From the IMG/VR virus record IMGVR_UViG_3300042275_000805: 64,000 nucleotides of DNA; one strand, given 5' to 3'. This DNA is from an uncultured virus (IMG/VR IMGVR_UViG_3300042275_000805). Taxonomy: Duplodnaviria; Heunggongvirae; Uroviricota; Caudoviricetes. The position numbers were made by a program, and so were the translations under genes. The notes beneath the pieces were generated by a model that worked only from the letters and a program-made list of their open reading frames with translations, had not been told where the DNA came from and ran no database searches. Numbering within the stretch: the first letter of the stretch is position 1; each line of letters opens with the position of its first letter. Below are positions 5,385 through 25,287 of the stretch, piece by piece.

Positions 5385-5824
5385 GTCTTGGCAGGTTGCA
5401 GCAGGTGTTCGAGTTGCTGTTGGAGTTCCGGACTGTCCAGTTGGGCACTGGCGATTTCCAGTGCTTTTTCCTCGACCTGGCGAAGCTTTGCCAGTGCCTT
5501 CTTGAGCACGGTTCGCTTCGCTGCGGGGAAAAAATCTGCCAACTCCTGGAGCAGTGCTGTGGTGGCATGATCGATCACGTCACCTGCCAGTGCCTGGCCG
5601 AACTGTTCATCGCTGACGTTGGCACTCTCGGCCTGCTGCTGGCAGATGGCATACAGCACATCGCAGAGCAGGATCGGATCGGTGGACAGTTTTTCCAGCA
5701 GATGCGATTTACTGTCCAACACATCCAACAGGTTGACGCCGACGAGTGCCTGGACACGTTTGATGGTGGCGACGGTAATATGCACAGTCCACACATTGTT
5801 GCTGTTATCAGAAAATGACTGCAT
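5381..5824 (-). CDS. Tail assembly chaperone (gpG-like)
   Basis: Start MQSFSD at 5824 overlaps the tail tube stop (TAATG); position after tail tube. Confidence 0.75.
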   Translation of the reverse strand: MQSFSDNSNNVWTVHITVATIKRVQALVGVNLLDVLDSKSHLLEKLSTDPILLCDVLYAICQQQAESANVSDEQFGQALAGDVIDHATTALLQELADFFPAAKRTVLKKALAKLRQVEEKALEIASAQLDSPELQQQLEHLLQPAKT

Positions 5825-6048
5825 TAGCTGCCACCTCCATCCACCCAAGTTGGTGCACGAGTAACATACGTTGGCTTGACGGTCACGTTGACGGTGATGG
5901 CTTCTTCGAGCGGTTCGTTGCGCGTGAAGTTGGTGACCGAGAAGTCAGCATCAAGTCCACTGCCACCTTCACCATCGAGCACGGCCATTGCGATGGGTGT
6001 GTTGTTGAAGTAGGCGTTCTTGATCGCGGTAAAACCTGCGTCCTCGGT
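5824..6048 (-). CDS. Major tail tube protein, exon 2 (TEDAGFTAIKNAYF...GGGS)
   Basis: Joins exon 1 (8531-8734) in frame after intron removal, giving a 142-aa protein. Confidence 0.88.
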   Translation of the reverse strand, partial: TEDAGFTAIKNAYFNNTPIAMAVLDGEGGSGLDADFSVTNFTRNEPLEEAITVNVTVKPTYVTRAPTWVDGGGS

Positions 6049-6087
6049 GTGGTGTAGGCCAAGGAGTTGCACCCTGACCCCAACCCC

Positions 6088-6121
6088 AAACCGGGCGTGC
6101 AAGTTTCCAAGCACCCGGCTT
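6088..6121 (-). ncRNA. Group II intron catalytic domain V
   Basis: AAGCCGGGTGCTTGGAAACTTGCACGCCCGGTTT hairpin with AGC triad, GAAA loop and AC bulge. Confidence 0.92.
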
Positions 6122-6139
6122 TCCCGATATTTCTTGACT

Positions 6140-7807
6140 TTATTTCGCATAGGTCTTTTCCTTGTGACAAAACAGACACAGGGTCTGCATGTTTTCCAGA
6201 TAACTTGCCTGTGCAAAGCTGGCAAAGCTTTGGACGGGTTTGATATGATCGGCCTGTGAGGTTGCTGCTGTGATGGGCTTGCCGCATTGGCTGCATTTCA
6301 AACCGTCACGTGCCAGGGCCTGATGCTTCAGGTCCATGCCACCGGTTCTGTTCTTTTCGTGGATGTAGCGTTCGCCGTCCACGTCAGAATCAGACTCGTA
6401 GTCGCCGTTGCCCGGCACATAAGGTTCGGGGCCACCTTGGTCCCATGCCATGCGTATATCGCGGAATTTCGCGAGTGTGCATGTTGAGAACATCCCAATG
6501 TAGCTTCCGAATGTGTACCCGCGAAGGCACTTGGCAGTGGATATGTCCTGCTTGCGACATATCGCTTTGACGGCTATCCAGTAGGCGTGATGGTCCAACA
6601 AGGACGACACGACTGAATAGTTATGGGCGATCTTGTAATAATGAGCCCATCCCCGTACAACTGCCGAGCCCCGGATCATGCGGACGGCAATCGACTCTTG
6701 TTGGGGTCGATGCCGAATCGCTTTCGCCAGGCTTCGCTTGGCATTGGCCACTGCTTCCAGCGGAACCTTGATCTTCGCAGCGTGGTGGCCACGTCTGACA
6801 ACACCCATTTCCAAGCGGAAACTGAGAAATTCAAAACCCTCGCGGACATGCGTGATGTGCGTCTTCTCCTCCGAAAGTCGCAGGCCGCAGTTGACGGCAA
6901 GGAACCCACGGATTTCCTCACGGAGATTCTCGGCATAACGCTTTGAAGCCCGCGTGATGAACACACACCAATCATCGGCATAGCGGACGAACCGAAGGTT
7001 CGGCTCCCGGTTATACCATGCTCGCCGACTGGCCAGATTGTGTGAACCCTTTGCATGCAGGAACCAGTCCAGCTTGTTCAGGACCACGTTGGCCAGTAAC
7101 GGTGAGACGACACCGCCTTGAGGCACGCCTTTCTCAGTGGGATGGACGATACCCTCAATTTCCACGCCTGATTTAAGGAACAGACGAATCAGATTGAGGA
7201 ATTTGTTATCCATCACCTTTTTCCGCAAGGCTTGGAGTATTGCCTTGTGCGAGATCTCATCGAAACACGCCTTCACATCGCCTTCGATCACCCATGTGAA
7301 CTGACGGTTCATCAGGTGTTTGCATCGAAAGATGGCATGATGCGTGCTTCTGTTGGGCCGAAACCCGTAGGAATCGTCATGGAATTCGACTTCAAAGATT
7401 GGTTCGAGTGCCATACGGACAGTCTCTTGCACAATCTTGTCCCGCAGGCAGGGAATCCCAAGCTTTCGCGGTTTCCCGTTGGGCTTGATGATCACACTGC
7501 GCCGCAGGGGCTGAGGACGATAGGTTCCATGTTTCAATTCCAACCGAAGTGCTTCCAGTTCCTTGGTCTGTGTTCTTTCAAACACGGACACGGTGATACC
7601 GTCAACACCCGGTGCTTTGCCTCGGGAACGTGTCATCACGCGAGCACAGGCTTCTGCGATCCATTGTGGATGATGCAGCAGGTCCATCAGGTTGCGAACC
7701 CGGCCATCGTACGAATTGACCGGAAACAGAGGTGATCCTGATTCCCTGTGTTGCTTGTGCATACGTGACTGTTCCCACAGTCTTCTCTGGACTTCTTTCA
7801 CGTTCAT
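6140..7807 (-). CDS. ltrA: Group II intron reverse transcriptase/maturase with C-terminal HNH endonuclease
   Basis: APGVDG, RKLGIP, SYGFRP, GVPQGGVVSPLLAN and RYADD RT motifs; RGWAHYY maturase; CxxC...DHI...N...LCxxCH HNH; alternative start at 7822. Confidence 0.95.
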   Translation of the reverse strand: MNVKEVQRRLWEQSRMHKQHRESGSPLFPVNSYDGRVRNLMDLLHHPQWIAEACARVMTRSRGKAPGVDGITVSVFERTQTKELEALRLELKHGTYRPQPLRRSVIIKPNGKPRKLGIPCLRDKIVQETVRMALEPIFEVEFHDDSYGFRPNRSTHHAIFRCKHLMNRQFTWVIEGDVKACFDEISHKAILQALRKKVMDNKFLNLIRLFLKSGVEIEGIVHPTEKGVPQGGVVSPLLANVVLNKLDWFLHAKGSHNLASRRAWYNREPNLRFVRYADDWCVFITRASKRYAENLREEIRGFLAVNCGLRLSEEKTHITHVREGFEFLSFRLEMGVVRRGHHAAKIKVPLEAVANAKRSLAKAIRHRPQQESIAVRMIRGSAVVRGWAHYYKIAHNYSVVSSLLDHHAYWIAVKAICRKQDISTAKCLRGYTFGSYIGMFSTCTLAKFRDIRMAWDQGGPEPYVPGNGDYESDSDVDGERYIHEKNRTGGMDLKHQALARDGLKCSQCGKPITAATSQADHIKPVQSFASFAQASYLENMQTLCLFCHKEKTYAK

Positions 7808-8530
7808 CGGAAACCCTTCCAATTGTTAAACCTTTCCGTCGTCCAGAACGAAACATCCTGCCTCCCTTCGCCATGTGGACGGCTTTCCCGTCCTCGGACT
7901 ACTACGGAGGCTCCGCCACTTGGTCGCCTCTTCGGTGTGGATTCAGTCAATTTCATATGGATCAACCTATCCGTGTGAGCACCGTTTGCCGGACCGTCCG
8001 GCGTTCTACTCGACCAAGCTTCACTGGTTCCTTTGCTGACACAATTCGCTTTCGCGTAGGCTCCGACTCTTGAGACACCCAACAGCGTTCCGCTGCTCCT
8101 CCAAACACCGTCAGATAGTTGACCACTCTGACGACTACGGAACTCTTGCGAGTTCGTCAGGACAAACGACTGGGATAATATCGTTTGTCCGTTTGGATCA
8201 TTCCCTATTCCGGGAGCAACCCCGGACGGCTTCTGTGTTATCAGGAATGAGGACATGTTTTTCCGAAGGTGCAAGTCAGTTTCCTAATTAAGTAGCCATA
8301 CGAAAACACTACCTTGAGAGACTGCCACGGCTAAGAAGCCTTGCCTGTGTCTCCCGTTGTCCGGGGAGCTCTTTTGCCGAGCCGGCTCACACATTCCGGT
8401 CGACTTACCCCGTAGGTACGGTGGACGGCCAAACGTCCACGGTGTGCAATCACACATTGTCAAGCAAAGTATCTCGTGCTGTTGATTGCTTGTTGCCAAG
8501 CACTCAAGCAGCGCGATACATCAGTCGCAC

Positions 8531-8734
8531 ATCCCAGGCCATCGTGAATTCAACACTGCCATTTTTGAGCGTGGCGATGGTTGTACGCCAACCATTGCTG
8601 GCTCGCGTGGTGATGTCGGCTTCGCCAGTTTCCAGGTTGAGCGTGACGTCCTTGACGTTGGTCAGCTCGGTTGTTGCGGATGCTCCGGCCGCGCCGTGGT
8701 ATAGCTTGGCCTGCATCCCTAAACGGATGGACAT
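8531..8734 (-). CDS. Major tail tube protein, exon 1 (MSIRLG...VEFTMAWD)
   Basis: 68 codons ending exactly at the intron GTGCG; AAGGAG SD. Confidence 0.88.
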
Positions 8735-8770
8735 AAAATTCTCCTTGAATTAAGGGGTTTTGTGTGTGGT

Positions 8771-9166
8771 TTATCGAATCGAGCCTGCCCAGAACCGGGG
8801 CAAACGCGTTAAGTTTTTACTGAGTGCAGGGCCCATGAATGGTCTGGCACGGTAATTGGCTTTGCGGTAGCGGCCACCAAATTCGTGTGCCATGGCCGAC
8901 GGGCCAACGTGGGCGAATCCTGGGCCGATCAGTACGCGGTCGCTGCCTTCGCGTGCATACACAATGGCACGCCGCAGTTGGCCGTGTCGGGTACGGGGTG
9001 GCGAACTGGGTGGTGCATAGCGTTTACTCCGTCGAATGCTGCGTCGTGCTGTTAACCGGATCGCCGCCCCGGCATGGCCCAGACTCTGGAAACTCGCCTG
9101 GTTCATCTTTTGCCGGATCAGTTTTTTGTTGAGCCCGTTATGGGGTGTAAAGTGAACTCTGAGCAT
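8771..9166 (-). CDS. HK97 gp10-like neck/tail completion protein
   Basis: Basic; PPxTRxGxLRRAI, HEFGG and ARPFMGPAL motifs. Confidence 0.75.
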   Translation of the reverse strand: MLRVHFTPHNGLNKKLIRQKMNQASFQSLGHAGAAIRLTARRSIRRSKRYAPPSSPPRTRHGQLRRAIVYAREGSDRVLIGPGFAHVGPSAMAHEFGGRYRKANYRARPFMGPALSKNLTRLPRFWAGSIR

Positions 9167-9172
9167 GGTGAT

Positions 9173-9604
9173 TTACTTCGTGATCCTGTACGTCAACGTC
9201 AGTACCGACGTGAACACCCGCTGATTGGCCAGATGTTCTGGATCATAGATGGGTACATTCTCAACCTTGATCCAGATGGCATACGGCATGTCCGTTAGTG
9301 GTTGGCGTTGCAGATACTCACCGAGCTGCTGCACCAACCCACTCAGCCCATGTACAGCAGTGTCGATTTCGTCCTGCGGTACGGAGAGTTTTTGCTGGAT
9401 ACCAATATCCACCTGACAGTCGTATTGACTGAGCTTGCGTGTGATGCTTTGAACCTGCACACCACGAGGAACGACACTGATTGTCAGTTCCCTTAATTGC
9501 GACAGATCGTGAATCGGCAATACCATCCGCTTGGCATTGGTGACGATCTCCGATTGATTGAGTTGCGAAGTCACAGCATCAGCCAAATCAATGGTCATTT
9601 GCAT
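9173..9604 (-). CDS. Putative tail terminator protein
   Basis: 143 aa in the head-tail connector block; GGAGG SD. Confidence 0.6.
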   Translation of the reverse strand: MQMTIDLADAVTSQLNQSEIVTNAKRMVLPIHDLSQLRELTISVVPRGVQVQSITRKLSQYDCQVDIGIQQKLSVPQDEIDTAVHGLSGLVQQLGEYLQRQPLTDMPYAIWIKVENVPIYDPEHLANQRVFTSVLTLTYRITK

Positions 9605-9622
9605 ATTTACCCTCCCCCCGGA

Positions 9623-9853
9623 TTAACCCCGGAAAATACTAAAAAGAATGTTCACCAGACTCGTCACACCGGCACCGGCGATGAGCCACATCCAACGAGC
9701 ATGACGAATCGCATTTTGCTCAAGGCGATCCAAACGGATGTTGATGCCCGGTTCACCATTGCCACGGATGGCGTGATCGAGCCGGTCGAGCTTGTTATGC
9801 AGTTCATCAAACTGACTGCAACTGCCAACGTCCTGTGAATTACATTGATTCAT
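9623..9853 (-). CDS. Small coiled-coil + C-terminal TM protein (holin/XhlA-like candidate)
   Basis: Start MNQCNS at 9853 (ATGA overlap); LDRLD..GNGEPG..LDRLE then one TM helix. Confidence 0.55.
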   Translation of the reverse strand: MNQCNSQDVGSCSQFDELHNKLDRLDHAIRGNGEPGINIRLDRLEQNAIRHARWMWLIAGAGVTSLVNILFSIFRG

Positions 9854-10215
9854 ACTTGGGGTTCTCCCAATAAACGGGTGTGAATACGGAGTGTCGTGTG
9901 ATATGGATCGCAGTAACGGTAGCAACCATCGTCACCCAAGTTGGTGATCTCGTATTGCTTGCTGCCCATCGTCAGAACATCGCCGGGTTCAGGTTCAAAC
10001 TCTGTCGGGAAGTCATCAGCATTCACGAGAAAATCCCACATGCTTGACTCGATGGTCACGCCACCGACGGTGGATTTTTCGTACTTGCTGATGCCTGGCG
10101 AGGCGTGGACGGTGTACGAGGATTCGCCTTGTTTGTAGGCAACTTCCTGCGTACACCATCCTGCCCGAACCTTGGCGAGCCACTGCATGCCATCTTTCAT
10201 GTAGTCTCTGGCCAT
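9850..10215 (-). CDS. Head-tail joining/head closure protein
   Basis: 121 aa with PEPGDVL...YEI pattern of FII-like closure proteins; position after capsid genes. Confidence 0.65.
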   Translation of the reverse strand: MARDYMKDGMQWLAKVRAGWCTQEVAYKQGESSYTVHASPGISKYEKSTVGGVTIESSMWDFLVNADDFPTEFEPEPGDVLTMGSKQYEITNLGDDGCYRYCDPYHTTLRIHTRLLGEPQV

Positions 10216-10230
10216 ACAGTTCGCCTTTGA

Positions 10231-10563
10231 TCATGCTGTGAGTTTGACGCGAATGGTCGCATCGTTGTCACCGGCATCAGACACGGCTTTGCCCATGTAC
10301 TTGCCTTCGATTTCGATGGTTGTTGCGTATTTGTTGGCCGAGTCCCAGTAGAGCTTGGTGCCCGTGGTGATGGCCATGCCTGGACCACCGATCTTGGGCA
10401 CATCGAAAATGCCGGTCACCGACAGGCTGCCTAGCGTGTTGGCAGCGATGTCGAGTTTGGCAATACCCACCAGGTCGCCTTGGACAACCACGTCGCCAGC
10501 AGCCACATCAGCAGCCGGAGTGTGGTCGATACTGTCACCTTTGTGAACGTAAGTTGCGGTCAT
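10231..10563 (-). CDS. DUF2190-family capsid cement/decoration protein
   Basis: ADVAAGDVVVQGDLVGIA...G.FDVPK...LYWD pattern; directly after the major capsid gene. Confidence 0.85.
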   Translation of the reverse strand: MTATYVHKGDSIDHTPAADVAAGDVVVQGDLVGIAKLDIAANTLGSLSVTGIFDVPKIGGPGMAITTGTKLYWDSANKYATTIEIEGKYMGKAVSDAGDNDATIRVKLTA

Positions 10564-10626
10564 GTATGAATACTCCTGTTGAAAGTGAATGGGTCAGAAA
10601 AAGTCACGAAATCACGCGAAGACGAA

Positions 10627-12720
10627 TCAGGCTTCACCCTTCATCTTCAGTGCGCCACGGTGGTCCTGTTCACGGACGCCGAAGTCGATGTAGCCACGGA
10701 ACTGAATGCCCAACGTATTGAAGTCGGCATCGGTCTTTTCGACGGTGGGACGATCCACGCCGTTAAGGAAAGCCACCTCAATCGAGGGCAGACGGTTGGG
10801 GTCGGCCAACAGATACCATGCCTTGCTGCTGGCCCCGGTGAAGCTGGCGTTAGCCAGATAGACACTGGAGACGACATCGAACTTGCCCACGTGCGGGTTG
10901 ATCGACGGTTTAGCTTTGTTGGCAGTGGTGGTTTCGTTGAGCTGAATGCTCTTCATGAGAAGTTCAGCTGCGACCTTCAGTGCGGTGGGCACGAGCAGGA
11001 TGTTGGCAGGCATCCCCAAGGGTTTGCCATTGGGCTTGATCTGTTCGCTGAATTTCACTTCAGCAGCGGTCAGACCATCGACGGACAAGGCAGTATCCAC
11101 GCCTTCGAGATAGTTGTTGTGATCAGCATGGAAGAAGGACTTGTTGTCGGATTGGTTGGGGTTGCGCAGCCACAGGCCCCAGACTGCATCCGCGATAGCT
11201 TCAGCAGCACCCATGCCGATCTGACGCGGGATGTCGGTGAACGCACCCATGTCATCGTTGATGATCATCTGGCGAGTGAGGGCAAACATGATGCCATGGG
11301 TGTCGGCACGCTGGCCGAACTTCTGTTCATCAAGTTTGCCGTGCTTGAGTTCACCGTCGGGGCCGACCTGTTCGAACTTGAACGCGCCGGTCATGCGATA
11401 GCGACTGTGTTCCTTGAAGTCGTTGACGCTGGCAATCTTTGCGATACGACGCCATGCATCTTCGACGTAGTTGTAGCCTTCGAGCAGCATCTTGTTGGCG
11501 ATGTTGCTGAGAACCCCCGGAAGGGATGCCGTGCTGAAAGCAGCCTGCAACCAGCCGGTAGCATCACGACGGAAGCGCGGCAGTTGCTGGCCGGATACCA
11601 GTTCGCAAAACTCCTGAACACCAATGCCGCGCAATTTGTCGGCAGCTTCGAGGACAGGTTCAGCGTACATCGCTTCGATGCGGGTATTGGGCAAACCACT
11701 GGCCATCAGGGCGACCGCTTCATACACCTGCGGATTGTTGGGACGCTGCGTCATCGGGCCAGCACCGTGCGCTGCCACCGGAATGTTGGGACGCGAAGCA
11801 CGCAGGACGTGCAGTTCGGTCTTGGTCGTATCCCAGCCTTCTTCAATGGCCTGAGCTTCGACGGTCGGGAACTTGCCATTGCAGATCTGACGAATCGCTG
11901 CGATGCGTTTGCTTTCGGCAGCAACCTGGGCACGGATGTCCGCAACAGCTTCGGGGACATTGTTTGTGTTGATGCTTGGCAGAGCAGTGGGCGTCGGAGT
12001 TTGGGCCTGAATTGCGGATGCATTTTCGGCCTGATTCTCGGAAGCATTGGTGTTCGACGCATCCGTGTTCGGGGAAAGGGTGGAAGTTCCGTTGGTACGA
12101 TTCATGCTGCTGTTCTCCTTGGCCGATGCGGCCACGTTGGCCGAGGTGTTGCCATCGGCACCGAGGTCTACGAAACTGATTTCGCCCAGCGTCGCACGCC
12201 GGACCACGTTGACAGGACCAGTGAATTGGCGGCCATTGACTTGGGCCACCTGACCGTCCTTGAAGAATTCGAACTGTTCAACCGAAGCGCCGATGCTGGC
12301 TTGCCAGGGGAATCCGTTGCGGGCATCAGCGACGAGTTCCTTGGCAGTGTGCCCAGTGCAGGAGACCACGCCTTCAGCCACGAGTTGGTTGTTGTCTACG
12401 CGGATGGCATGGGTGTGACCAACGCGTTTGTCGGTGTCGTGTCCCACACGAATCGGCCGGATTTGCGAAGGGATGGCAAGACCTGCCAGGTCGACAATGA
12501 CCGGGAATTTCCAGCCAGCTAGCCGCATGGGACCGCCGGTGTATGCCAGCATGGAAAAACGCGGGAGCATTGACTCAGACTGTTGGCCACCAGAGTCATT
12601 GGCCTGTGCCTGGGCATCAATGGTCAGCGTTGCGGTAAGCTGCAACTGGCCATTGGTGTGATTCTGACTGTCAGTCTGCTGAGTTTGATGTTGCTGGTTC
12701 ATTGTCATCGGCTGCGTCAT
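10627..12720 (-). CDS. Prohead protease-major capsid protein fusion (Mu gpT-like capsid domain)
   Basis: N-terminal AYTGG...H...PWQASIGA...EISFVDLGAD protease, scaffold-like linker, C-terminal SVNDFK...TRQMIINDD...DFG capsid; start 12702-12753 uncertain. Confidence 0.88.
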   Translation of the reverse strand: MTQPMTMNQQHQTQQTDSQNHTNGQLQLTATLTIDAQAQANDSGGQQSESMLPRFSMLAYTGGPMRLAGWKFPVIVDLAGLAIPSQIRPIRVGHDTDKRVGHTHAIRVDNNQLVAEGVVSCTGHTAKELVADARNGFPWQASIGASVEQFEFFKDGQVAQVNGRQFTGPVNVVRRATLGEISFVDLGADGNTSANVAASAKENSSMNRTNGTSTLSPNTDASNTNASENQAENASAIQAQTPTPTALPSINTNNVPEAVADIRAQVAAESKRIAAIRQICNGKFPTVEAQAIEEGWDTTKTELHVLRASRPNIPVAAHGAGPMTQRPNNPQVYEAVALMASGLPNTRIEAMYAEPVLEAADKLRGIGVQEFCELVSGQQLPRFRRDATGWLQAAFSTASLPGVLSNIANKMLLEGYNYVEDAWRRIAKIASVNDFKEHSRYRMTGAFKFEQVGPDGELKHGKLDEQKFGQRADTHGIMFALTRQMIINDDMGAFTDIPRQIGMGAAEAIADAVWGLWLRNPNQSDNKSFFHADHNNYLEGVDTALSVDGLTAAEVKFSEQIKPNGKPLGMPANILLVPTALKVAAELLMKSIQLNETTTANKAKPSINPHVGKFDVVSSVYLANASFTGASSKAWYLLADPNRLPSIEVAFLNGVDRPTVEKTDADFNTLGIQFRGYIDFGVREQDHRGALKMKGEA

Positions 12721-14173
12721 CTTCCTGTTGCGGTTTGCTATTGGGCTGAACACTGTCTGTGGTTAAGCCCAGTTGTTTCATCAGGGCGACCTCACGGGCA
12801 CGTTGCCGTAGTTCGGTTTCCCAGTCTTTACCTTGTCGTGCGTATTCAATGGCCAAAGTGGTGGTGTTGCTGGCCAGGCGTGTGGATTGAGCGTTGGCTT
12901 CCTTGGCGGGGTCGACGTGTTCATGCCCATCCCAAAACCACTGGTGCGGGAATCTGGCAAACGACGTGCGAAATGATTGAGGCAAGAGTCCTTCGATCAG
13001 GACTGCCTCGGACATCCAGGCTGAAAAAATCCGGTCCAGGACCACTGACTCCATGTGTGACTGTTCAACGCGGACACTCTTGAAGTATGTCTGGTGGTCC
13101 AGGCGACCGGATGCATAGTTGTAGCCCGATGAATTGCCAGCGGCGATGTTGAATGGCATGTTCAAACAACGGGCGATTTCGTTGAGGATTTCCTTCTTGA
13201 ATTCACCATAGGTGGTGGCGGGTTGTTCAGCAGTGACCTGCCCGAGTTTCCAGCCGCCGGGCAACACCGTGGCCATGCGACGTTCCAGTTCCACCAGGTC
13301 CATCGGCTCAACGTTTTCCGCTTCACCATTGGCTGGAGCATCGGTGTAGAGCACCGCAGCAAAGTCGGCAGCGGTTTCGGCGGCAGCAATCACCGCCAAG
13401 GTGTAACGTCGCAATTGGGCAAACAATGGTAATGCAGGTGTGATGTCGGGAATCCCACGTGCCTGCCCCGGGCGATCCGGTTTGAAATAATGGATCATCC
13501 TCTCAGAGGAAATCGCATCGAACTCTGCGCCAGATGTCCAGATTGCATTGTCACCGGGATGGTTTCGCATCAGGTGGTATTCGCAGGGATTGCCAAAGAC
13601 ATCAAAGACGATCCCATCAACCCCATCCAGCGACGAACCGTGCCGCCTGATGCTTTGTGTCGAAGTGAGGTACGGCGTGGCAATCTGATCCGCTTCGATC
13701 AGGCGGATGTCAACCTGCACGGGATGATCAACGTGATGGTTGCCAAAGAGCAAGGCGAAGACTTCGCCGCTTTCGGCTCGGGCGATCCGCATGGTGCGGA
13801 GTTTCTGGGCCAAACCGATTGCATCTGCCCAGTCGGAAAACGCCTGTTCAACAAGGCGATTGGCGATGGGGTTTTCACAGAGCAGTTGCAGACTCGGGCC
13901 GGTGCCCACCACGTCGTTGGCCAGTGTCTGGACAATGCCACGAGCGTAGGAGTTGTTGGCGACTTCGTACCGGGCACGTTTCCTGAGAGTACTGCGTACA
14001 TCGGGACTCAACGCAGAATTGGGTGACAAGCCATCTGCATGAGCCCAGTGACGCCGGTTTTCATCCGTTGTCACTGCCGCGTCATACCGGGCACGCATCA
14101 CCCGCACATCGCTGTGCTGTTTGCCTTGCAGCGTGCGTTTGCCCGATGCGATGGATTTGAGCCAGCCAAACAT
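12671..14173 (-). CDS. Lambda-family portal protein
   Basis: LRKRARYEVANNSYARG, RPGQARGIP, NYASGRLD and HVDPAKEA motifs. Confidence 0.93.
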   Translation of the reverse strand: MFGWLKSIASGKRTLQGKQHSDVRVMRARYDAAVTTDENRRHWAHADGLSPNSALSPDVRSTLRKRARYEVANNSYARGIVQTLANDVVGTGPSLQLLCENPIANRLVEQAFSDWADAIGLAQKLRTMRIARAESGEVFALLFGNHHVDHPVQVDIRLIEADQIATPYLTSTQSIRRHGSSLDGVDGIVFDVFGNPCEYHLMRNHPGDNAIWTSGAEFDAISSERMIHYFKPDRPGQARGIPDITPALPLFAQLRRYTLAVIAAAETAADFAAVLYTDAPANGEAENVEPMDLVELERRMATVLPGGWKLGQVTAEQPATTYGEFKKEILNEIARCLNMPFNIAAGNSSGYNYASGRLDHQTYFKSVRVEQSHMESVVLDRIFSAWMSEAVLIEGLLPQSFRTSFARFPHQWFWDGHEHVDPAKEANAQSTRLASNTTTLAIEYARQGKDWETELRQRAREVALMKQLGLTTDSVQPNSKPQQEDDAADDNEPATSNSAD

Positions 14174-14192
14174 GCAGAATCCTTCAAGTGGT

Positions 14193-14390
14193 TCAGTCAG
14201 ACGATGGTGGGACGAGTTTTTTGAGTGAAATTCTCAAGCCCTTTTTGCGGGACGCCTTCTTGCTTTGCAGATAACGGTCCGCAGCAATCTGGTCTGGAAG
14301 CGAGTGTTGTTCGACGGTCATCCCATCGACATCCGCTTTGCGTGGGGCCTGGGCGTTTTGAGCGATGGATTCATCAAGTTCATCCGTCAT
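14193..14390 (-). CDS. gpW-like head completion protein
   Basis: 65 aa between terminase and portal; VDGMTVEQHSLPDQIAADRYL. Confidence 0.6.
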   Translation of the reverse strand: MTDELDESIAQNAQAPRKADVDGMTVEQHSLPDQIAADRYLQSKKASRKKGLRISLKKLVPPSSD

Positions 14391-14605
14391 CCGGTAAGCT
14401 CCGTGACATGGTGTGTGGTAATGGTGCGTTGGCGGTTACGCCGGAGTCTTTGGGCAAACGTCGCCACCGCGCGTGCGGGATTGCGTCCTTCCAGATGCGC
14501 GATCCACGCTTCCTGTATGGCATCTTCACGGTCCACCAGATTGACGAAACGAAGTTCCATCAGCAGTGGGCCGTTGTCCGACATGGGTGGGAGTATGCTT
14601 GTCAT
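14387..14605 (-). CDS. Hypothetical protein
   Basis: 72 aa, ATGA overlap with next gene. Confidence 0.5.
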   Translation of the reverse strand: MTSILPPMSDNGPLLMELRFVNLVDREDAIQEAWIAHLEGRNPARAVATFAQRLRRNRQRTITTHHVTELTG

Positions 14606-14680
14606 CTACCTATATGTGTCACCGTGTCTGGATTCGTGCTGCATGCTTCAGACAAAAAGAATAAAATTCACGTGGATGGA

Positions 14681-17047
14681 TCAACGCGTTTTGCGTTTGA
14701 TGCTTGAGAGCTTGATTCGGGGACGGTTGTTCTGCTGGCGAACGTCCGTACCAAAGAGCACGCATCCCTGCATACTCGCAGCCACCGCACATCCGACCAG
14801 ACAGTCAAGCCAGTGATTGTCGCGACCCGGTGTTCGGAGTTTCCATTCATCAATCTGGCGACCACGTCCTTCGGTTTTGACCCGGTATTCAGCGGTCAGA
14901 TGTTCAGCCAGCATCCGATGATCCATTGATGAGCTATGTGCAAACAGTGACAAGCAACCCGGATCACCCATAGCCACGGACAATCTGGCATGCACAAAAC
15001 TTTTCCAGTAGTTGGTATCGATCAATGCATAGCGTATGGATCGACGTCCCTGAACACAGGGCACTCGCCAATGGAGACCAACCCGGTCACCGCGTTTGGG
15101 CTTGTAGTCGGAGAAAGGGATGCTGGACGCACCCACATACCGACCATGACTTGGCATCAGGACAGCAGCATGACTGCTTTGCCGACAGAACTGATACACG
15201 ACATCGGTGGAGTTGCCCCAGTTGGCGTCGATCATGCAGCGTTCGATACTCAACTCCGCACCATCATCCCGTCGAAAATGCTGCGCCAGACGTTTGGCGG
15301 TCAACGTTTCGAGTCCAGCATAGATTGCTCCTTCCAGGCCGGTCCCGGGGTGAGACATCATCATCGTCTTGCGTACATCACGAAGCGTGAAGTAACTCCG
15401 TTTCTGATCGGGATACGTACCATAGTCCAGGATGTAGCCGGTGAAATCGTCCTCCCAACCGCAGACCATCCAGAACAGTGCATTGCCCTGGACGTCAATG
15501 AACATGGTCATGTGATTGACACCCAATGGGACTTCACCACGTTGATGCCCGTTGGTTTTGGATGCGATGGTGTCCGCATCCAGCATCTCTTCACCTTGAT
15601 CCAAGATCGGCGGTTCATTCTGGTACTCAGCCCAGAACGCGGTTTCGCCCTGATCCAGTTTCAGGTTCATCGCATGTTGGATTGCTGACAACTCGTCGGG
15701 GTTGTGGCGCTCAGGCCATGCGACGACAAAACCTTCATCCATCTGCTGGCGATGCTTGCGATAGAACGCGGTGGATTCACCTGTCCCACGGTCTGTGCGT
15801 TGGCCTTCAGCACGGATCTGTGCATACTGCTGCCAGAGTTTGTCTGCGGGGCTGCCCGATGGTGGGAACGCATAGACCATCTTGGTGCGTTGGCCTTGCC
15901 ATTGCGGGTGTTTGTCACGATTGAGAATCCGGTCTGCCATGTCGTCAGGGCGCACCACGGTCAACGTCATCAGCCCGGCAATCTTCTTGCCTGGTCCAGC
16001 CAACCCCAGGATCGCACCCGACAGAATCTGTTCGCGCGTGGCACATTGCGATGGCGAACGGGCAGACTCATCCGTCTGCGGGTCATCCAACAACACCAGC
16101 GACGGCCGTGTCGTCTTGCCATCAGCACGTTTATGCTTCATGCCACGGATTCGACCCGTGATCCCAGCAACTTTGATGATCCCCGCAGAGGCAGTGGAAC
16201 CTTCGATATCCGGCAGAATGATCTCCTTGGAGGTCCAGCCAATATGCGTGCGTGCGCCACGATACAGTTGGCCTGCAGCACGTTGGTGAATGCCTTCCAA
16301 CGCACGGATTGGCCCGGTGACTTCCGAGAAGTCTTCGTCGATCAGATCGTTGTTTTCCAGCTCGGATTTGATCGAATCGAGCATGTCCGCAGCGTGATCT
16401 TCATCCGAACCAATCAACGCCACGAACTGCCGATGCCCATAAACCAACGCCCATAGACATGCCGTTTCGCACAAAGAGGTTTTGCCTGACCCACGCGGCA
16501 TGGCCATGGCAAACAAACCACCCTCCAGCACGGCCTGTTCAATCTTGGCAATCACAGCCAGGTGATCCGGCGACCAGGTCAAATGAAAGGTCATCTGGAA
16601 ATACTGCTCGCAAAACTCACGAAAACTGTTTCGGCAGGATTCCTTTCGCTCCGCATTGACGGGTGGGTGGACCCAACCATCAGAACCAATGTCACGCGAT
16701 GACTCTGAAGCTGCACGACTCCGTGCGTTGACTGCATCCTTATGTCGGGAGTACAGACTGTCGGCAGAGTCGGACGTGTCCGGTTCCTGCGACATCTCCT
16801 GACGTTCATGGAACAGCCACGCTGCATATCGCAACAGATCAAGCCGCCGCAGGTTTCCCGGCGATGCGATTCGACTGGCTGCACGGTTGAGATGGCGATA
16901 GACCACATGCGGCTGAATCACTTCACCCAACGGGGATGAATTGAGCAGCCGAACCGCCTCTGCCACACGCAATTGTCGCGGGTCGAGATTTCGAGATGGT
17001 GGATTGTTACCGGAACTCAACGGGCCTGTACCTCTCTGGCTAACCAT
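14681..17047 (-). CDS. Terminase large subunit (GpA-like) with N-terminal HTH-like extension
   Basis: Walker A AMPRGSGKT, Walker B VLLDDPQ, nuclease FIDVQ...IDANWG...NHWLDCLV. Confidence 0.9.
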   Translation of the reverse strand: MVSQRGTGPLSSGNNPPSRNLDPRQLRVAEAVRLLNSSPLGEVIQPHVVYRHLNRAASRIASPGNLRRLDLLRYAAWLFHERQEMSQEPDTSDSADSLYSRHKDAVNARSRAASESSRDIGSDGWVHPPVNAERKESCRNSFREFCEQYFQMTFHLTWSPDHLAVIAKIEQAVLEGGLFAMAMPRGSGKTSLCETACLWALVYGHRQFVALIGSDEDHAADMLDSIKSELENNDLIDEDFSEVTGPIRALEGIHQRAAGQLYRGARTHIGWTSKEIILPDIEGSTASAGIIKVAGITGRIRGMKHKRADGKTTRPSLVLLDDPQTDESARSPSQCATREQILSGAILGLAGPGKKIAGLMTLTVVRPDDMADRILNRDKHPQWQGQRTKMVYAFPPSGSPADKLWQQYAQIRAEGQRTDRGTGESTAFYRKHRQQMDEGFVVAWPERHNPDELSAIQHAMNLKLDQGETAFWAEYQNEPPILDQGEEMLDADTIASKTNGHQRGEVPLGVNHMTMFIDVQGNALFWMVCGWEDDFTGYILDYGTYPDQKRSYFTLRDVRKTMMMSHPGTGLEGAIYAGLETLTAKRLAQHFRRDDGAELSIERCMIDANWGNSTDVVYQFCRQSSHAAVLMPSHGRYVGASSIPFSDYKPKRGDRVGLHWRVPCVQGRRSIRYALIDTNYWKSFVHARLSVAMGDPGCLSLFAHSSSMDHRMLAEHLTAEYRVKTEGRGRQIDEWKLRTPGRDNHWLDCLVGCAVAASMQGCVLFGTDVRQQNNRPRIKLSSIKRKTR

Positions 17048-17226
17048 GCGGTGTAGTGAATCAGATTGATCTTGCCATCCGCTCCGATTGGCATGCCACG
17101 GTCAATATCTGCCTGAATCTGCTCAGGTGTGATCCGCTTACTGCCCGCAGCAGAGAGCAGTCGTGACACTTCTTCTATAGACAACGCCATTGGATTGACT
17201 GGCTGGTTGCCAGGTGTCTTTGGCAT
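17017..17226 (-). CDS. Small HTH protein (terminase small subunit-like)
   Basis: 69 aa from MPKTPG; overlaps the TerL start; resembles the TerL N-terminus. Confidence 0.6.
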   Translation of the reverse strand: MPKTPGNQPVNPMALSIEEVSRLLSAAGSKRITPEQIQADIDRGMPIGADGKINLIHYTAWLAREVQAR

Positions 17227-17358
17227 GGCAAAAACCTCATGTTTCAAGGGAAAACGGGCACATTCAGAAGTTACCCACAATGTCAGAAAGATGCCTTGAT
17301 GTCATTGAAAATGAATGGCTCAATGTGTCCACAACGCAGCACGAAAGGAAAAACACAG

Positions 17359-17637
17359 ATGCGTATCAAACGAATTGAACTTGAAGGCGACAACGGACAC
17401 GCAACCATCGAACGCACCCGGACCACCCCGGGAAGCCAGACCATCCGGATCGACAGCATCCTTCGCAACCCCAAGGCACACGAACAAGCCTGGCGTACCT
17501 GGGAGATTTCCTCCCGCACCGACAGCGACGAACTCTACAACATCGCCAAGATCCTCCAGCAACGATGCGACGGTGTACGCGGCACAGGCGGCGACGTACA
17601 GGATTACTACACCGAACTGCAACGCTTCGCAGACTAA
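17359..17637 (+). CDS. Hypothetical protein (counter-oriented cassette)
   Basis: MRIKRIELEG start with AAGGA SD. Confidence 0.7.
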   Translation: MRIKRIELEGDNGHATIERTRTTPGSQTIRIDSILRNPKAHEQAWRTWEISSRTDSDELYNIAKILQQRCDGVRGTGGDVQDYYTELQRFAD

Positions 17638-17658
17638 CCCCAAACCACGGAGCCCCCG

Positions 17659-18015
17659 ATGAAAACCATCAACACCATCATCAGCAAGATCGCCAAGCAG
17701 CATCTGCACATTCAAACACTCAAAGCCCGCAAACGCGACTGCCTGGATTTCCACAACGTCGCGGTTTGGGAAGTAGGTGACGCATTGGAGGCGGCATACC
17801 GGGCGGGCCAGGCCAGCACATCGCCACAGATGACTGAAGCGATCTGCGACAACCTTTCGCCCGATGCGGTCGGAGCCATCGCCACACGACTGCAAAACAC
17901 CCAGACCAACGATGACAACGTCAACCGAGAAGTGCTTTGGTTCACCCAGCAACTGATTCAGGCCCTTGGCGGCAAGGAACAGCAGGAGCGGATCGCCAAG
18001 GAACTCGGTTTGTAA
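17659..18015 (+). CDS. DUF6900-like protein
   Basis: IAKQHLHIQTLKARKRDCLDFHNVAVWEVGDALEAAYRAG. Confidence 0.7.
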   Translation: MKTINTIISKIAKQHLHIQTLKARKRDCLDFHNVAVWEVGDALEAAYRAGQASTSPQMTEAICDNLSPDAVGAIATRLQNTQTNDDNVNREVLWFTQQLIQALGGKEQQERIAKELGL

Positions 18016-18081
18016 AACCCCATTACGGGGGCGGGCCTGGCCAGCCTGATTTCTACCAACACGGCCAAAGGAGCATTGATC

Positions 18082-18495
18082 ATGCCACGTACCAAGAAGA
18101 TTCAACCGTCCAAACCCACCACCCGCAAGCAACGCGCCAAGGCCGTCGCCAAAGTCACGAAGGAACGCATCACCGAGTCGCTGCCGATCACCATCGACGA
18201 AGCGATCACCAACAGCCTTGATGGCAATGCACCTCGCAAACGTTCGACGCCCAAACCGCAGAAGAGCAAGAAAAGCAGCGGTCTGGATATCGCCGCACAG
18301 ATTCTCAAGGCATCCGAACAACCCATGCGATGCCGGGACATCGTCCAACGGATGATCGACGATGGCCTTTGGCAAACCAATGGCAAGACCCCACACGCCA
18401 CGATCTACGCGGCCATGATTCGGGAGATCCAAACCAAAGGCGAGCAGAGCAGGTTCAAGAAAACCGACCGGGGATTGTTCACACACAACGGATGA
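18082..18495 (+). CDS. Winged-helix (HARE-HTH-like) DNA-binding protein with Lys-rich N-terminus
   Basis: SGLDIAAQIL...GLWQTNGKTPHATIYAAMIREI...RFKKTDRGLF; AAGGAG SD. Confidence 0.8.
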   Translation: MPRTKKIQPSKPTTRKQRAKAVAKVTKERITESLPITIDEAITNSLDGNAPRKRSTPKPQKSKKSSGLDIAAQILKASEQPMRCRDIVQRMIDDGLWQTNGKTPHATIYAAMIREIQTKGEQSRFKKTDRGLFTHNG

Positions 18496-18498
18496 CAT

Positions 18499-19881
18499 TC
18501 AACACTTCTCCTTGCCACCACCAACCCCGACCACATCTTGTTGGCTCGGGGTTTTCTTCGGTTGAGTCTTTTCAGCAGCAGGGATGCGTTCTGCCTTCTG
18601 CCCCGTGAATTTCTCCCATCGCTGCACGATCACATCTGCATACAGCGGATCAATCTCCATCAGGTACGCATGTCGCCCGGTTTGTTCAGCAGCCATCAAG
18701 GTCGAGCCGCTGCCACCGAACAAGTCGAGGACGTTTGCACCAGGTTTTGATGAGTATTGAATACAGCGGATGCCCAATTCGACAGGTTTTTCAGTCAGAT
18801 GCACCATGGCCTGTGGATTGACTTTTTTGACATGCCAGAGATCGGTTGCATTGTTGGGGCCATAGAAGTGATGGCCTGCACCTTCCTTCCAACCGTAAAA
18901 ACAAATCTCAAATGCCCCCATGAAATCCTTGCGAGTCAGAACGGGATGTTGCTTATCCCAGATAATTCCCTGAGAAAAGTACAGACCGGCAGCTTTGATC
19001 GGTGCAGGATAGTTACCGAGATTGGCATAGCCGCCCCAGATGTAGAATGACGCACCGGGTTTCATGACACGTGACGCATTGGCAAACCATGCCAACAGCA
19101 TCTTGTCGAAATCCTCAGCACTGACGAAATCGTTAGCAAGCGGTCGATCCTTTGCACGCATCTTCTTTTGGGCTTTTTTCTTGTCGGTAGTCCCTCGTGC
19201 CTTGTCGAATCCCTGATGATGAAGTTGTACTTTCTTATCTCCAAACGAGCTTAAACCCGCTGCAATAGCAGTGTTACTGCGAGGTTCAACTTTGACATTG
19301 TATGGAGGATCGCTGGCAAATAGATCAATGATTGCACCATCAAGCAGACGATCCAAATCATCTTTTAAGCTGCTGTCACCGCACATCAAACGGTGATTAC
19401 CTAGTATCCAAATGTCACCCGGTTTGGTGGTCGCTTCGTCAGGCGGCTGGGGCACATCATCTGGGTCTGTCAATCCCTGCTGGACTTCACCACTGACCAT
19501 GCTTGTTAATTCATCCTGGTTGAAACCCAGCAGCCCCATGTCAAAATCCATCTCCTGCAAGGCTGACAATTCGATGGGCAGGAGTTTGTAATCCCATTCG
19601 GCAAGGCTGGCGGTCTGGTTGTCAGCAAGGCGGTAGGCTTTGACCTGCGCGTCGGACAGGTCGGTGGCCACATGCACCGGCACCTTGGCAAGCCCCAGCT
19701 TCTTGGCAGCTTTCCAGCGGGTATGCCCGACGATGATCACATTCTCGCTGTCGACGACAATGGGTTGACGGAAGCCAAATTCCCGCAGCGAAGCAGCCAC
19801 CGCGTCGATGGCATCGTCGTTGATGCGGGGGTTACCGGGATAGGGTTGAACCTGGTCAATGTCACGTAATTCGATCTTCAT
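18499..19881 (-). CDS. ParB-like N-terminal domain + DNA N6/N4 methyltransferase
   Basis: YPGNPR...FGFRQPIVVD...GHTR ParB domain; DPPY and LDLFGGSGST MTase motifs; HLTEKP. Confidence 0.92.
   Translation of the reverse strand: MKIELRDIDQVQPYPGNPRINDDAIDAVAASLREFGFRQPIVVDSENVIIVGHTRWKAAKKLGLAKVPVHVATDLSDAQVKAYRLADNQTASLAEWDYKLLPIELSALQEMDFDMGLLGFNQDELTSMVSGEVQQGLTDPDDVPQPPDEATTKPGDIWILGNHRLMCGDSSLKDDLDRLLDGAIIDLFASDPPYNVKVEPRSNTAIAAGLSSFGDKKVQLHHQGFDKARGTTDKKKAQKKMRAKDRPLANDFVSAEDFDKMLLAWFANASRVMKPGASFYIWGGYANLGNYPAPIKAAGLYFSQGIIWDKQHPVLTRKDFMGAFEICFYGWKEGAGHHFYGPNNATDLWHVKKVNPQAMVHLTEKPVELGIRCIQYSSKPGANVLDLFGGSGSTLMAAEQTGRHAYLMEIDPLYADVIVQRWEKFTGQKAERIPAAEKTQPKKTPSQQDVVGVGGGKEKC
18523..18556 (+). 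terminator. Probable intrinsic terminator of the + cassette
   Basis: AACCCCGA...TCGGGGTT stem followed by T-rich tract. Confidence 0.55.
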
Positions 19882-20145
19882 GAAATTTTTCCTTTGAGAA
19901 AGAAAGTCTGTCTATAAGCGTTGCCGTTCCCGCGGCCATTTCTTTTGGTTTGGGCCAGGGAGGAACCATCGAGTGCTCAGCCCCATGCCCAGGCTCCGGC
20001 CTGCCGCCTGCCAGTCTGGCACCCAGTGCCCGGCCTCGGCCCAGTCGCGCCACGTTGGCGTCTGTGGCCCACGGTGGCTTGGTGGTCTATTCGTTCGCCT
20101 TGCCCGTACCAACGCGACGTGGGCCAACGTGGGCGGGGGCACGGC

Positions 20146-20303: not shown

Positions 20304-20343
20304 ACCAAACCAATCAAAATCCATTGCCCAAAGCACGTGTTCA

Positions 20344-24702: not shown

Positions 24703-24725
24703 GATTGCCCTGTAAATGCAGGTTC

Positions 24726-24765: not shown

Positions 24766-24786
24766 CAGGAGATGGGAATGGAGCGA

Positions 24787-25257: not shown

Positions 25258-25287
25258 GGATCAATCTCCTTGTTCAATAGGTAAGTG

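Follow-up and report, generated by a model that had tools for sequence, protein, structure and literature searches.

Very probably, the sole TP901-1-type tail-tube gene of a planctomycete prophage is split by an intact and recently mobile group II intron, which appears to recognise its exons in the IIA manner and encodes a reverse transcriptase-maturase-HNH protein. This reading of the window (the whole 64,000-nt stretch of DNA analysed here) is carried by the anatomy of the intron, a precise exon junction, exon-recognition pairings that covary in relatives and a population signature of spread. The features are collected in Table 1.

Table 1. Features of the split tail-tube gene, its intron and neighbouring genes in the window
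Feature	Positions	Strand	Description
Group II intron	6049..8530	-	2,482 nt; starts GUGCG (8530..8526), ends ...CCUACACCAC
Exon 1, major tail-tube gene	8531..8734	-	68 codons, MSIRLGMQ...EFTMAWD; from the ORF listing
Exon 2, tail-tube gene	5824..6048	-	74 codons, TEDAGFTAIK...WVDGGGS (6048..5827), plus stop
Intron-encoded protein	6140..7807	-	555 aa, ATG at 7807; reverse transcriptase (YADD), maturase X, DNA-binding, HNH endonuclease
Domain V	6088..6121	-	AGC triad 6120..6118, GAAA loop; Rfam alignments
Domain VI	6049..6085	-	A6055 bulged, 7 nt ahead of the 3' splice site; RF00029 consensus structure line
EBS1 hairpin	8160..8190	-	Stems 8190..8181 / 8169..8160, loop UAUUAUCCCAG; exon covariation in relatives
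Variable segment AAAAACAUGUC	8252..8262	-	EBS2 position of the family; pairs weakly with the exon here
Conserved motif GAAGCCGUC	8225..8233	-	Half of a tertiary pairing; contains GCCGUC (8230..8225)
GGCUUC	8335..8340	-	Loop partner of GAAGCC 8233..8228; covarying long-range pairing
Empty site CUGGGAU/A in ParB-N6/N4 methylase gene	18954..18961	-	...GIIWD/KQH...; same as tail-tube IBS1 plus delta'
Tail completion gene	8771-9166		Matches phrog_5
Tape measure gene	2115-4481		Tape measure protein

The split gene and its intron

The initial annotation had proposed that the intron interrupts the major tail tube gene and that its removal restores an in-frame protein, and both points were borne out. 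The joined exons encode 142 residues with the insertion in phase 0 after codon 68, and the uninterrupted homolog P0001 (142 aa, 96% identical) aligns without a gap across the junction, ...FTMAWDTEDAGF.... In alignment A1 the two exon pieces fall end to end on the 142-aa homologs, with exon 1 forming residues 1-68, and the expected continuity at WD/T (a slash marks the insertion point) was observed in these intron-less proteins as ...FTMAWD/TEDAGF.... P0001 matches PF06199 (TP901-1-type) with 30.3 bits against a Pfam cut-off of 23.8, and this family was found in 118 of the 120 homologs among the matches listed. Exon 1 matches phrog_1407 (major tail protein) at E 2e-5; searched on their own against Pfam, the exon pieces gave no match. 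The genes are arranged in the order neck/tail-completion, tube, two small genes and tape measure, and the exon-2 stop codon shares bases with the following start codon (TAATG). Searched by tblastn for the tail-tube gene, the window yielded nothing but the two exon pieces, which indicates that the prophage has a single tube gene. The prophage modules elsewhere in the window are all open.

The first bases of the intron agree with the GUGYG 5' boundary and directly abut the exon end ...CUGGGAU, which forms IBS1 (8537..8531, minus strand). Domains V and VI together match Rfam RF00029 at 6123..6049 over model positions 1-77 (50.4 bits, gathering score 40), and A6055 is the probable branch point according to the consensus structure. 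For the seven Rfam D1-D4 models (clan CL00102), no family was listed for 5950-8650 at E values up to 10. The open reading frame of the intron-encoded protein lies in domain IV. Its reverse transcriptase, YADD motif and HNH domain are intact, as first described: YADD is present in the translation, and the protein matches RVT_1 (E 7.5e-35, 120.9 bits), HNH (E 2.1e-6) and TIGR04416 (344.3 bits, cut-off 300). The match to GIIM (X), at 22.9 bits, falls just below the cut-off of 23. Relatives of the protein align with it across residues 1-555.

Contigs of DNA runs cross both intron junctions (records 8 and 10) and the same arrangement is found in a complete genome, which together rule out an assembly artefact. 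Four DNA runs were mapped, and no single piece covers the whole stretch. Separately, the DNA-run contigs were observed to break at 6047 and 8530, and the depth over the intron was higher in X1; depth and uncovered parts of the DNA runs were left out of the evidence.

Recognition of the exons

The EBS1 sequence AUCCCAG (8176..8170) pairs perfectly with CUGGGAU through seven of seven Watson-Crick pairs, in agreement with the initial annotation, and the EBS1 loop tracks the exon in relatives that have other exons. Exon-end-anchored pairings of at least 6 bp were found in 24 of 35 cognate intron/exon pairs vs 106 of 1190 non-cognate pairs. The preceding residue, U8177, stands opposite A6048, with which exon 2 begins, as delta and delta', which had also been proposed. 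The U8177 column pairs with exon-2 position +1 in all 32 non-redundant relatives and uses all six pair types, and the next best column reaches 0.69; this column scan superseded an anchored count of delta (20/22).

The 3' exon is therefore read by delta beside EBS1 and not by a separate EBS3, which is the IIA arrangement in Table 1 of Zimmerly and Semper (2015; PMC4424553). The exon recognition thus appears to be of the IIA type, a label that rests on delta-delta' together with the endonuclease domain. According to the part of the same review available, IIA introns are associated with the intron-encoded-protein lineages ML or A, ML being the IIA lineage with En, and the ML, CL and B lineages have acquired En. 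The lambda/epsilon' region looks more IIB-like, as an RNAalifold consensus predicts that intron positions 124-126 (UAA) form a bulge of 3 nt; the IIA criterion of Merk, Jones and Eddy is a lambda/epsilon' loop of about 11 nt (PMC12350094, partial text). The intron-encoded protein matches PDB chains of IIA, IIB and IIC proteins about equally well (E 1e-49 to 1.5e-48).

GCCGUC (8230..8225) had been put forward as EBS2. The letters are present and can pair with GAUGGC (8543..8538), but this element is conserved independently of the exon and takes part in a tertiary pairing, and it was rejected. Among 45 aligned relatives whose exons are unrelated, 21 carry the same hexamer, the mean run for its segment is 3.86 in cognate pairs, a level attained by 1412 of 2000 permutations, vs 3.89 in non-cognate pairs, and a run of at least 6 is seen in 49 of 1190 non-cognate pairs (4.1%). 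In addition, its GCC belongs to the covarying pairing of GAAGCC with GGCUUC, where 84 of 96 cells are paired in 16 distinct combinations with changes on both sides, a result that none of 2000 shuffles reached.

The EBS2 of the family was located instead at 8262..8252, where the mean run is 4.83 in cognate vs 3.69 in non-cognate pairs and none of 2000 permutations reaches the observed value. Wider segments did not discriminate (5.11 vs 4.81), whereas narrowing to this 11-nt variable segment did. With the window exon the segment forms only 4 bp (UGUC with GAUG), two of which are G-U; in copies L168 and L169 the sequence of this segment is AAUGAGAG, which matches CUCAU in their exon. The earlier description of the exon-binding sites as fully matched is thus overstated, since it stands for EBS1 and delta but the EBS2 match is poor.

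From these features a mechanism can be proposed. Transcription of the late operon would run through the intron, and the intron-encoded protein would be made from the unspliced RNA and help the ribozyme to fold. The bulged A of domain VI would then attack the 5' junction, leading to exon ligation and the 142-aa tube protein; the unspliced RNA would yield only a 76-aa stump. Virion production may thus be expected, on sound grounds, to depend on splicing. The excised lariat with its protein would reverse-splice into intron-less tail-tube alleles, reading the target chiefly by the 7 bp of EBS1 and the 1 bp of delta, EBS2 being weak, and the inserted intron would then be copied into DNA. Here, we infer splicing, its efficiency and the homing pathway from sequence.

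Copies, relatives and spread

The complete planctomycete genome CP087563.1 (G002) has exactly three full copies of the intron, each in a tail-tube gene at the same WD/T codon. They are 97-98% identical to the window intron, while their exons and neighbouring DNA reach only 81-90% identity. When the copies were compared, the introns were found to be 96.9-100% identical, the exons 82-100% and the outer flanks 81-87%. Since intron identity lies far above flank identity, the spread is likely to be recent and selfish, and the near-identical copies in more diverged tail-tube genes suggest that it took place among related viruses. Of the 11 tail-tube genes in this genome, 3 are occupied and 8 are empty. 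These copies and empty sites support the homing among related phages first suggested. The DNA of G001, L001 and L002 is the same as that of the window and was not counted as support. Both EBS1 and EBS2 vary with the exon allele in the CP087563.1 copies (GUCCCAG with ...GGGAC, AUGAG with CUCAU), and in copy L167 delta is an A opposite A.

In two of these copies, L168 and L169, an identical tract begins 289 nt upstream of the intron and reaches exon-2 base +2, with one difference in the 2482 bases of their introns; from +3 onwards the two differ. During retrohoming of the yeast mitochondrial introns aI1 and aI2, co-conversion is one-sided and affects the upstream exon, and the one-sided identity of the 5' flank plus intron in L168 and L169 resembles this. 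The setting here, unlike that of aI1/aI2, is bacterial or phage, and the pattern is drawn from the sequence of one copy pair. To our knowledge, Ll.LtrB homing in bacteria proceeds without co-conversion, and we know of no one-sided co-conversion from bacteria. The 5'-only tract could also have arisen by ordinary recombination between co-resident prophages that ended by chance at the intron.

Relatives of the intron were found at about 13 sites in homologs of prophage genes. These sites are distributed over the tail tube (at least 4), ParB-methylase (3), large terminase (2) and AAA_24 (2) genes, with one further site in a small head-tail ORF and another upstream of the tape measure; the same family also occurs in transposase and deaminase genes. 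The exons of L137 and L088 were assigned by blastx only. L148 and L149 were considered as same-site tail-tube relatives and rejected, as their exons encode a DNA methylase.

The closest ribozyme relatives sit in this DNA methylase gene, at ...UGGGAC/A, so the tail-tube site may be a secondary target. The home site would then be WD/K of the phage ParB-N6/N4 methylase, and the tail-tube copy would have arisen by retrotransposition into the look-alike C UGG GAY/A and become partly adapted. We regard this as possible but rather doubtful. Domains I-III are 85-89% identical to those of L149 and L143 vs 66-79% for the other relatives compared, and L148 and L149 lie at ...GUGUGGGAC/AAG of a methylase 63% identical to that of the window. 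At the homologous position the window methylase has an empty AUCUGGGAU/AAG, which shares the same 8 letters with the tail-tube target, and EBS2 is unmatched in the tail-tube exon. However, this 8-letter word is expected by chance about once per window, and the intron-encoded protein falls together with that of L089, whose host gene codes for a Y-family polymerase, rather than with those of L148/L149 (SH-aLRT 99). Furthermore, all four known near-identical copies (the window and the three in CP087563.1) are in tail-tube genes, the 12 full-length methylase genes in that genome all lack one, and a distant second intron, L163, occupies the same tail-tube codon.

The intron could also have been co-opted by the phage as a regulatory device, compatible with a selfish element, in which splicing efficiency throttles the supply of tube protein and of the translationally coupled downstream tail genes. 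The overlap of the exon-2 stop with the next start would fit this idea, as would the location in a late structural gene needed in abundance and the recurrence of related introns in tail-tube genes. The throttling of the tail operon raised by the initial annotation found no support. We consider the regulatory reading improbable, as most alleles are intron-less: besides the 8 of 11 in CP087563.1, all 80 viral loci among the matches listed lack the intron, although this listing, obtained with the single protein P0001, is biased towards uninterrupted genes. Of the empty viral alleles, 14 of 79 have the full IBS1 together with A at +1. The high intron identity relative to the flanks and the presence of the same family in methylase, terminase, transposase and deaminase genes also argue against a regulatory role. 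Finally, a dead relic in a defective prophage, with splicing lost and the tail-tube gene inactivated, is highly improbable despite the weak EBS2 and the possible decay of some of the approximately 11 related prophage-like tail modules in CP087563.1, because the 555-aa frame is open with all domains kept, domains V and VI are canonical, the exon-encoded protein remains 96% identical to uninterrupted homologs, near-identical copies lie in diverged alleles and the remaining prophage modules of the window are open.

Relation to known introns and significance

Group II introns in phages have been described before. In 2008 group II introns were stated to be 'not found in bacteriophages' (PMC2504315, partial text), and they were thought to be absent from phages until 2025, when Merk, Jones and Eddy (Nucleic Acids Res 2025, PMC12350094) catalogued them. 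The present case shares with theirs a group II intron in a conserved phage gene, identified by a D5/D6 match, an uninterrupted homolog and EBS/IBS pairing, and the initial GTGCG, the final AC and the AGC triad are features of their IIA examples as well. This record appears in their Table S2 (IMGVR_UViG_3300042278_000591, RF00029 match), where it has no D1-D4 match, together with the records of L003 and L006. In the available text of that survey, IMG/VR hits are counted only, without analysis of the host genes, and the 20 curated cases, unlike the present one, include no major tail or tube gene. Clostridium phage c-st comes closest, with a IIB intron that lacks an ORF in its gene for a minor tail protein. 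A homing signature and a multi-site radiation are likewise absent from that text. What is new here is the set of tail-tube copies in CP087563.1, the one-sided tract and the family of about 13 sites. Among deposited phage genomes, none matches the intron-encoded protein at 60% identity or more, and the matches listed reach at most 40%.

The model IIA/ML intron is Ll.LtrB of Lactococcus lactis with its protein LtrA, as described in part by Zimmerly and Semper (2015; PMC4424553). As in Ll.LtrB, domain IV encodes a protein that combines RT, X, D and En domains and the exons are read by EBS1, EBS2 and delta-delta'; by analogy, target-primed reverse transcription would be the expected route. The protein is only remotely similar to LtrA (chain 5g2x_C, E 2.4e-49, no better than IIB/IIC proteins), the host gene encodes a phage structural protein and not a relaxase, and the window intron has its EBS2 about 75 nt upstream of EBS1, all unlike Ll.LtrB. 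Group I introns are known from phage tail genes; Bacillus prophage BwK1 has one in its tail-tube gene, and others lie in tape-measure genes (Tourasse and Kolsto 2008, PMC2504315) and in tail genes of Cluster J mycobacteriophages (PMC3706429), as far as the available texts show. There too, a mobile self-splicing intron interrupts an essential late structural gene in frame, and related introns occupy several sites. In contrast to the homing endonuclease and DNA repair used by group I introns, the window intron would be expected to move by reverse splicing and reverse transcription.

A split tube gene of this kind escapes ordinary gene callers. The public provirus record ends a few bases past the intron's 3' terminus, and all downstream tail genes lie outside it. 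Where the published survey counts metagenomic hits without examining them, this intron provides a worked example with exact boundaries, covariation-backed exon-binding sites, an essential late structural gene as host and sequence signs of ongoing spread between prophages. We tentatively propose, as a plausible though rather uncertain picture, an intron lineage that has specialised in a single family of temperate phages of planctomycetes and may have radiated to about 13 core-gene sites, retrohoming between co-resident prophages with copying of the upstream exon and reshuffling its ribozyme and protein modules. With three occupied and eight empty tube genes, CP087563.1 allows direct tests of homing and co-conversion and of what an intron costs in a highly expressed virion gene.

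Intron, host gene and prophage setting

The tail-tube gene of this phage is interrupted by a genuine group II intron. The 5' junction (8531/8530, minus strand) reads ...GAATTCACGATGGCCTGGGAT|GTGCGACTGATG... and the 3' junction (6049/6048, minus strand) reads ...GGCCTACACCAC|ACCGAGGAC..., while the Rfam model for domains V and VI (RF00029) matches 6123..6049 over its whole length with 50.4 bits (gathering score 40). Domain V contains the AGC triad and a GAAA loop, and the bulged A of domain VI (A6055) is located seven bases 5' of the intron 3' end. The intron-encoded ORF matches RVT_1 (Pfam, E 7.5e-35), HNH (E 2.1e-6) and TIGR04416, the NCBI equivalog for group II reverse transcriptase/maturase (344.3 bits, cut-off 300), and its GIIM maturase domain scores 22.9 bits, slightly below the cut-off of 23. 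The YADD motif was also found in the translation, in agreement with the initial annotation, which had described RT, YADD and HNH as intact. Judged by its sequence, the intron is apparently active.

Removal of 6049-8530 had been said to restore an in-frame protein of 142 residues, and this was borne out. The 68 codons of exon 1 and the 74 codons of exon 2 are adjacent pieces which abut exactly on uninterrupted homologs in the alignment (...EFTMAWD then TEDAGF...), so that the WD-T continuity sought in intron-less homologs was found. One of these homologs (P0001, 96% identical) matches the Phage_tail_2 tail-tube family with 30.3 bits (Pfam cut-off 23.8). When longer proteins were searched with exon 1, 469 of 543 candidates matched at E <=0.001, with PF06199 occurring in 118 of the 120 matches listed, and exon 1 also matches phrog_1407, 'major tail protein'. 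Contigs from four public DNA runs span both junctions. In X16, a public DNA run, a related uninterrupted allele (...FTMIWNTED...) was also observed, and two contigs fuse 6124 to 7858, omitting the whole protein ORF; they represent a derived, ORF-less form of the intron from the same habitat.

The element carrying the split gene is a prophage whose genes reach about 30 kb in the window, after which cellular genes follow. Its gene set comprises portal, large terminase, ParB-N6/N4 methylase, primase-AAA_25, helicase, AAA_24, PD-(D/E)XK nuclease and serine recombinase, and the capsid-protease fusion, decoration and head-tail joining genes are located upstream of the tail-tube gene. No second tube gene was found within the 64-kb window. 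The major capsid protein and the maturation protease form a single ORF of 708 aa (10627-12753, minus strand), which matches phrog_4523, 'major head and protease protein'. Because the cellular genes are 89-90% identical to those of the complete planctomycete genome CP087563.1, the host is a related planctomycete.

The public provirus record of this DNA (30,626 bases, CheckV completeness 63%) covers 36668..6043 and stops five to six bases beyond the 3' splice site; exon 2, two small ORFs, the tape measure and the distal tail genes (297-6043) are therefore absent from it. Next to the prophage, minus-strand genes at 36710-41588 encode a TIR-domain protein (36710-37240), a response regulator, a histidine-kinase-like ATPase and an AAA_23/AAA_15/AbiEii-like ATPase (39702-41588), and this cluster may be a defence island. 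A plus-strand ORF (43289-64000) extends over 6,904 codons or more, runs open past the window end and contains PKD and FG-GAP repeats within its first 2,000 residues.

Features around the intron and insertion sites of related introns in phage genes
Feature or gene	Position	Strand	Loci or remark
Intron-encoded ORF, 555 aa	ATG 7807, stop 6140	-	between ribozyme halves
Tail-completion gene	8771-9166		adjoins tail-tube gene on one side
Tape measure	2115-4481		beyond two small ORFs from tail-tube gene
Methylase	after residue 195 (DPPYN|VKVEP)		a dozen loci (blastx/Pfam)
Methylase	after residue 309 (WD|K)		L148/L149
Methylase	after residue 415		L100
Large terminase	near N-terminus		L088, L090
Large terminase	after residue 611		L137
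Tail tube	after residue 33		L004 (same contig as L131)
Tail tube	after residue 41 (GEADV|TTR)		L006, L125, L138
Tail tube	about residues 44-46		L123/L124, L152
Tail tube	after residue 68		window and L163 (...LVWD|ADD..., EBS1 GUCCCA)
AAA_24	two sites		L139, L126
Small ORF resembling 9623-9925			L104
Upstream of tape measure			L005 (same contig as L135)

Recognition of the exons

Relatives of the intron protein with 55-70% identity were found in four viral contigs besides the window's own record, together with the best 80 of 129 relatives from metagenome contigs. The 5' ends were placed in 45 introns, the window included. Of these, 35 were kept for the pairing tests: introns with the same last 10 bases of the exon were counted once, and loci L092 and L093, which have tandem or duplicated intron ends, were removed. 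In L092 a second intron lies directly behind the 3' end of the first (about 33-127), and in L093 (389-415) the first 26 intron bases are repeated ahead of the true start.

In the hairpin at 8190..8160, the loop sequence was observed to vary with the exon. End-anchored pairing of at least 6 bp occurs in 24 of the 35 cognate combinations versus 106 of the 1190 non-cognate ones, and the proposed EBS1 (AUCCCAG, 8176..8170) is real. The same holds for the proposed delta contact between A6048 and U8177, the residue immediately 5' of EBS1: when all columns were tested for complementarity to base +1 of exon 2, the U8177 column was found to pair in 32/32 introns, with all six pair types represented, and the second-best column reached 0.69. 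In L167, a near-identical copy of the intron in CP087563.1, the delta A of the EBS1 loop faces an A at +1, which is a mismatch. This A would be complementary to the U that the empty WD|S alleles of that genome have at +1, as if L167 had been derived from a WD|S allele.

The segment GCCGUC (8230..8225), which had been assigned as EBS2, was rejected. It is present at the same place in 21 of the 45 aligned introns whatever the exon, with the remaining 24 differing by one to three letters. Its complementarity is 3.86 with cognate exons versus 3.89 with foreign ones, a value reached in 1412 of 2000 permutations, and 4.1% of foreign intron/exon pairs show a match of 6 bp. Its bases GCC also take part in a covarying long-range contact between GAAGCC (8233..8228) and GGCUUC (8340..8335), where 84 of 96 cells are paired, both sides change and none of 2000 shuffles attains this level. 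The segment that follows the exon is located at 8262..8252, just 5' of the stem UCAUUCC, with a family mean run of 4.83 for cognate exons versus 3.69 (attained in 0/2000 permutations). In the window it pairs with the exon as UGUC/GAUG only, two of these pairs being G-U. The clearest single case is that of L168 and L169, two further near-identical copies, located at the same site in CP087563.1, which keep GAAGCCGUC and in which the variable segment is AAUGAGAG, matching their exon, which differs from that of the window and reads CUCAU.

According to a review (Zimmerly and Semper 2015, PMC4424553), delta-delta' recognition of the 3' exon is a defining trait of IIA introns, and the endonuclease domain was gained by ML, CL and B among eight protein lineages, with classes C, D, E and F lacking it. 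The delta-delta' pairing together with the endonuclease domain hence points to an ML-like IIA intron. IIA, IIB and IIC intron proteins in the PDB score alike against the intron protein, none of the D1-D4 models of Rfam matches the intron, and the predicted consensus fold has a small bulge at the position where IIA expects a large loop.

Sites and possible exchange within the intron family

The flanks of the relatives were compared with the window proteins (blastx) and with Pfam, which placed them in homologs of the prophage genes listed in the table. Further hosts of the family are an IS66 transposase, a YhgA-like transposase, a deaminase, a topoisomerase-type zinc-ribbon protein and a Y-family polymerase. 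Planctomycetota were the source of 23 of the 27 loci in named genomes. A tree of 80 intron proteins, inferred with a fast search and SH-aLRT as the sole support measure, has tail-tube introns in at least four separate places; the window and L163 are not sisters on it, both being inserted after residue 68. Five of 85 loci were excluded from this tree as they had no YADD-containing ORF of at least 430 aa.

Mismatched flanks were noticed in L104 (1-3763), where the 5' side resembles the head-tail joining gene and small ORF 9623-9925 of the window and the 3' side is methylase from residue 196. Either two intron copies have recombined here, or the repeat has led to a chimeric assembly. The methylase of L099 (3263-4663) is interrupted at DPPYN|V by a group II intron and has an insert resembling an intein further downstream (Intein_splicing, 31.7 bits, under the cut-off of 35.8).

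Domains I-III of the window (8530-7986) are 85-89% identical to the introns L149 and L143 versus 66-79% for the other relatives compared. The window protein is nearest to that of L089 in every segment (80, 75, 63 and 56%) and forms its sister on the tree, and its identity to L149 is 39% in the X part and 37% in the En part. This discordance between ribozyme and protein suggests module exchange between introns. Either the ribozyme and the ORF of different family members were combined, or L089 would likewise resemble L149 in its missing 5' part. A jump between the tail-tube and methylase WD sites is also plausible, because the empty site in the window methylase (AUCUGGGAU|AAG) is identical to the tail-tube target over eight letters.

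Signs of spread among related prophages

The search for other genomic copies, proposed in the initial annotation, gave exactly three full copies in CP087563.1, which are 97-98% identical to the window intron and all located at WD|T in tail-tube genes. This 7.4-Mb genome has 11 tail-tube and 12 full-length ParB-methylase genes of the window's phage type (L199-L222), and the chromosome thus bears about a dozen related prophage-like elements. Eight of the 11 tube genes are uninterrupted. None of the 12 methylase genes is split, and a single TGA lies within the match in two of them.

Across the four loci of the window and CP087563.1, the introns are 96.9-100% and the exons 82-100% identical versus 81-87% for the outer flanks. 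These values, together with the empty tube genes, favor the suggested homing among related phages, and the signs of spread are clear. L168 and L169 differ at one of 2482 intron bases and are identical upstream over 289 nt, that is, all of exon 1 and 85 nt more, and they diverge starting at exon 2 base +3. Copying of unspliced donor RNA into the upstream exon, a pathway known from yeast mitochondria, would leave such a one-sided tract ending at the 3' junction. Alternatively, the tract might reflect ordinary recombination that ended at the 3' junction by chance. Empty alleles, which in CP087563.1 include WD|S, WD|A and ETVWD|T, depart mostly at +1 or at EBS2 positions, and the full IBS1 with A at +1 was found in 14 of 79 uninterrupted viral alleles.

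A recent survey describes 20 curated phage group II introns and matches in 9,229 IMG/VR contigs (Merk, Jones and Eddy 2025, PMC12350094). Its Table S1 has no major tail gene, though a gene for a minor tail protein is listed there with an intron that lacks an ORF, and the D5/D6 match of the window's record appears in Table S2. Searches of the literature on group II introns and bacteriophage, tail or structural genes did not retrieve a description of the tail-tube intron of the window. Phage group II introns have only recently been recognised and the tail-tube intron of the window is a further, new example, where the seemingly phage-bound radiation of its family adds interest to the case.
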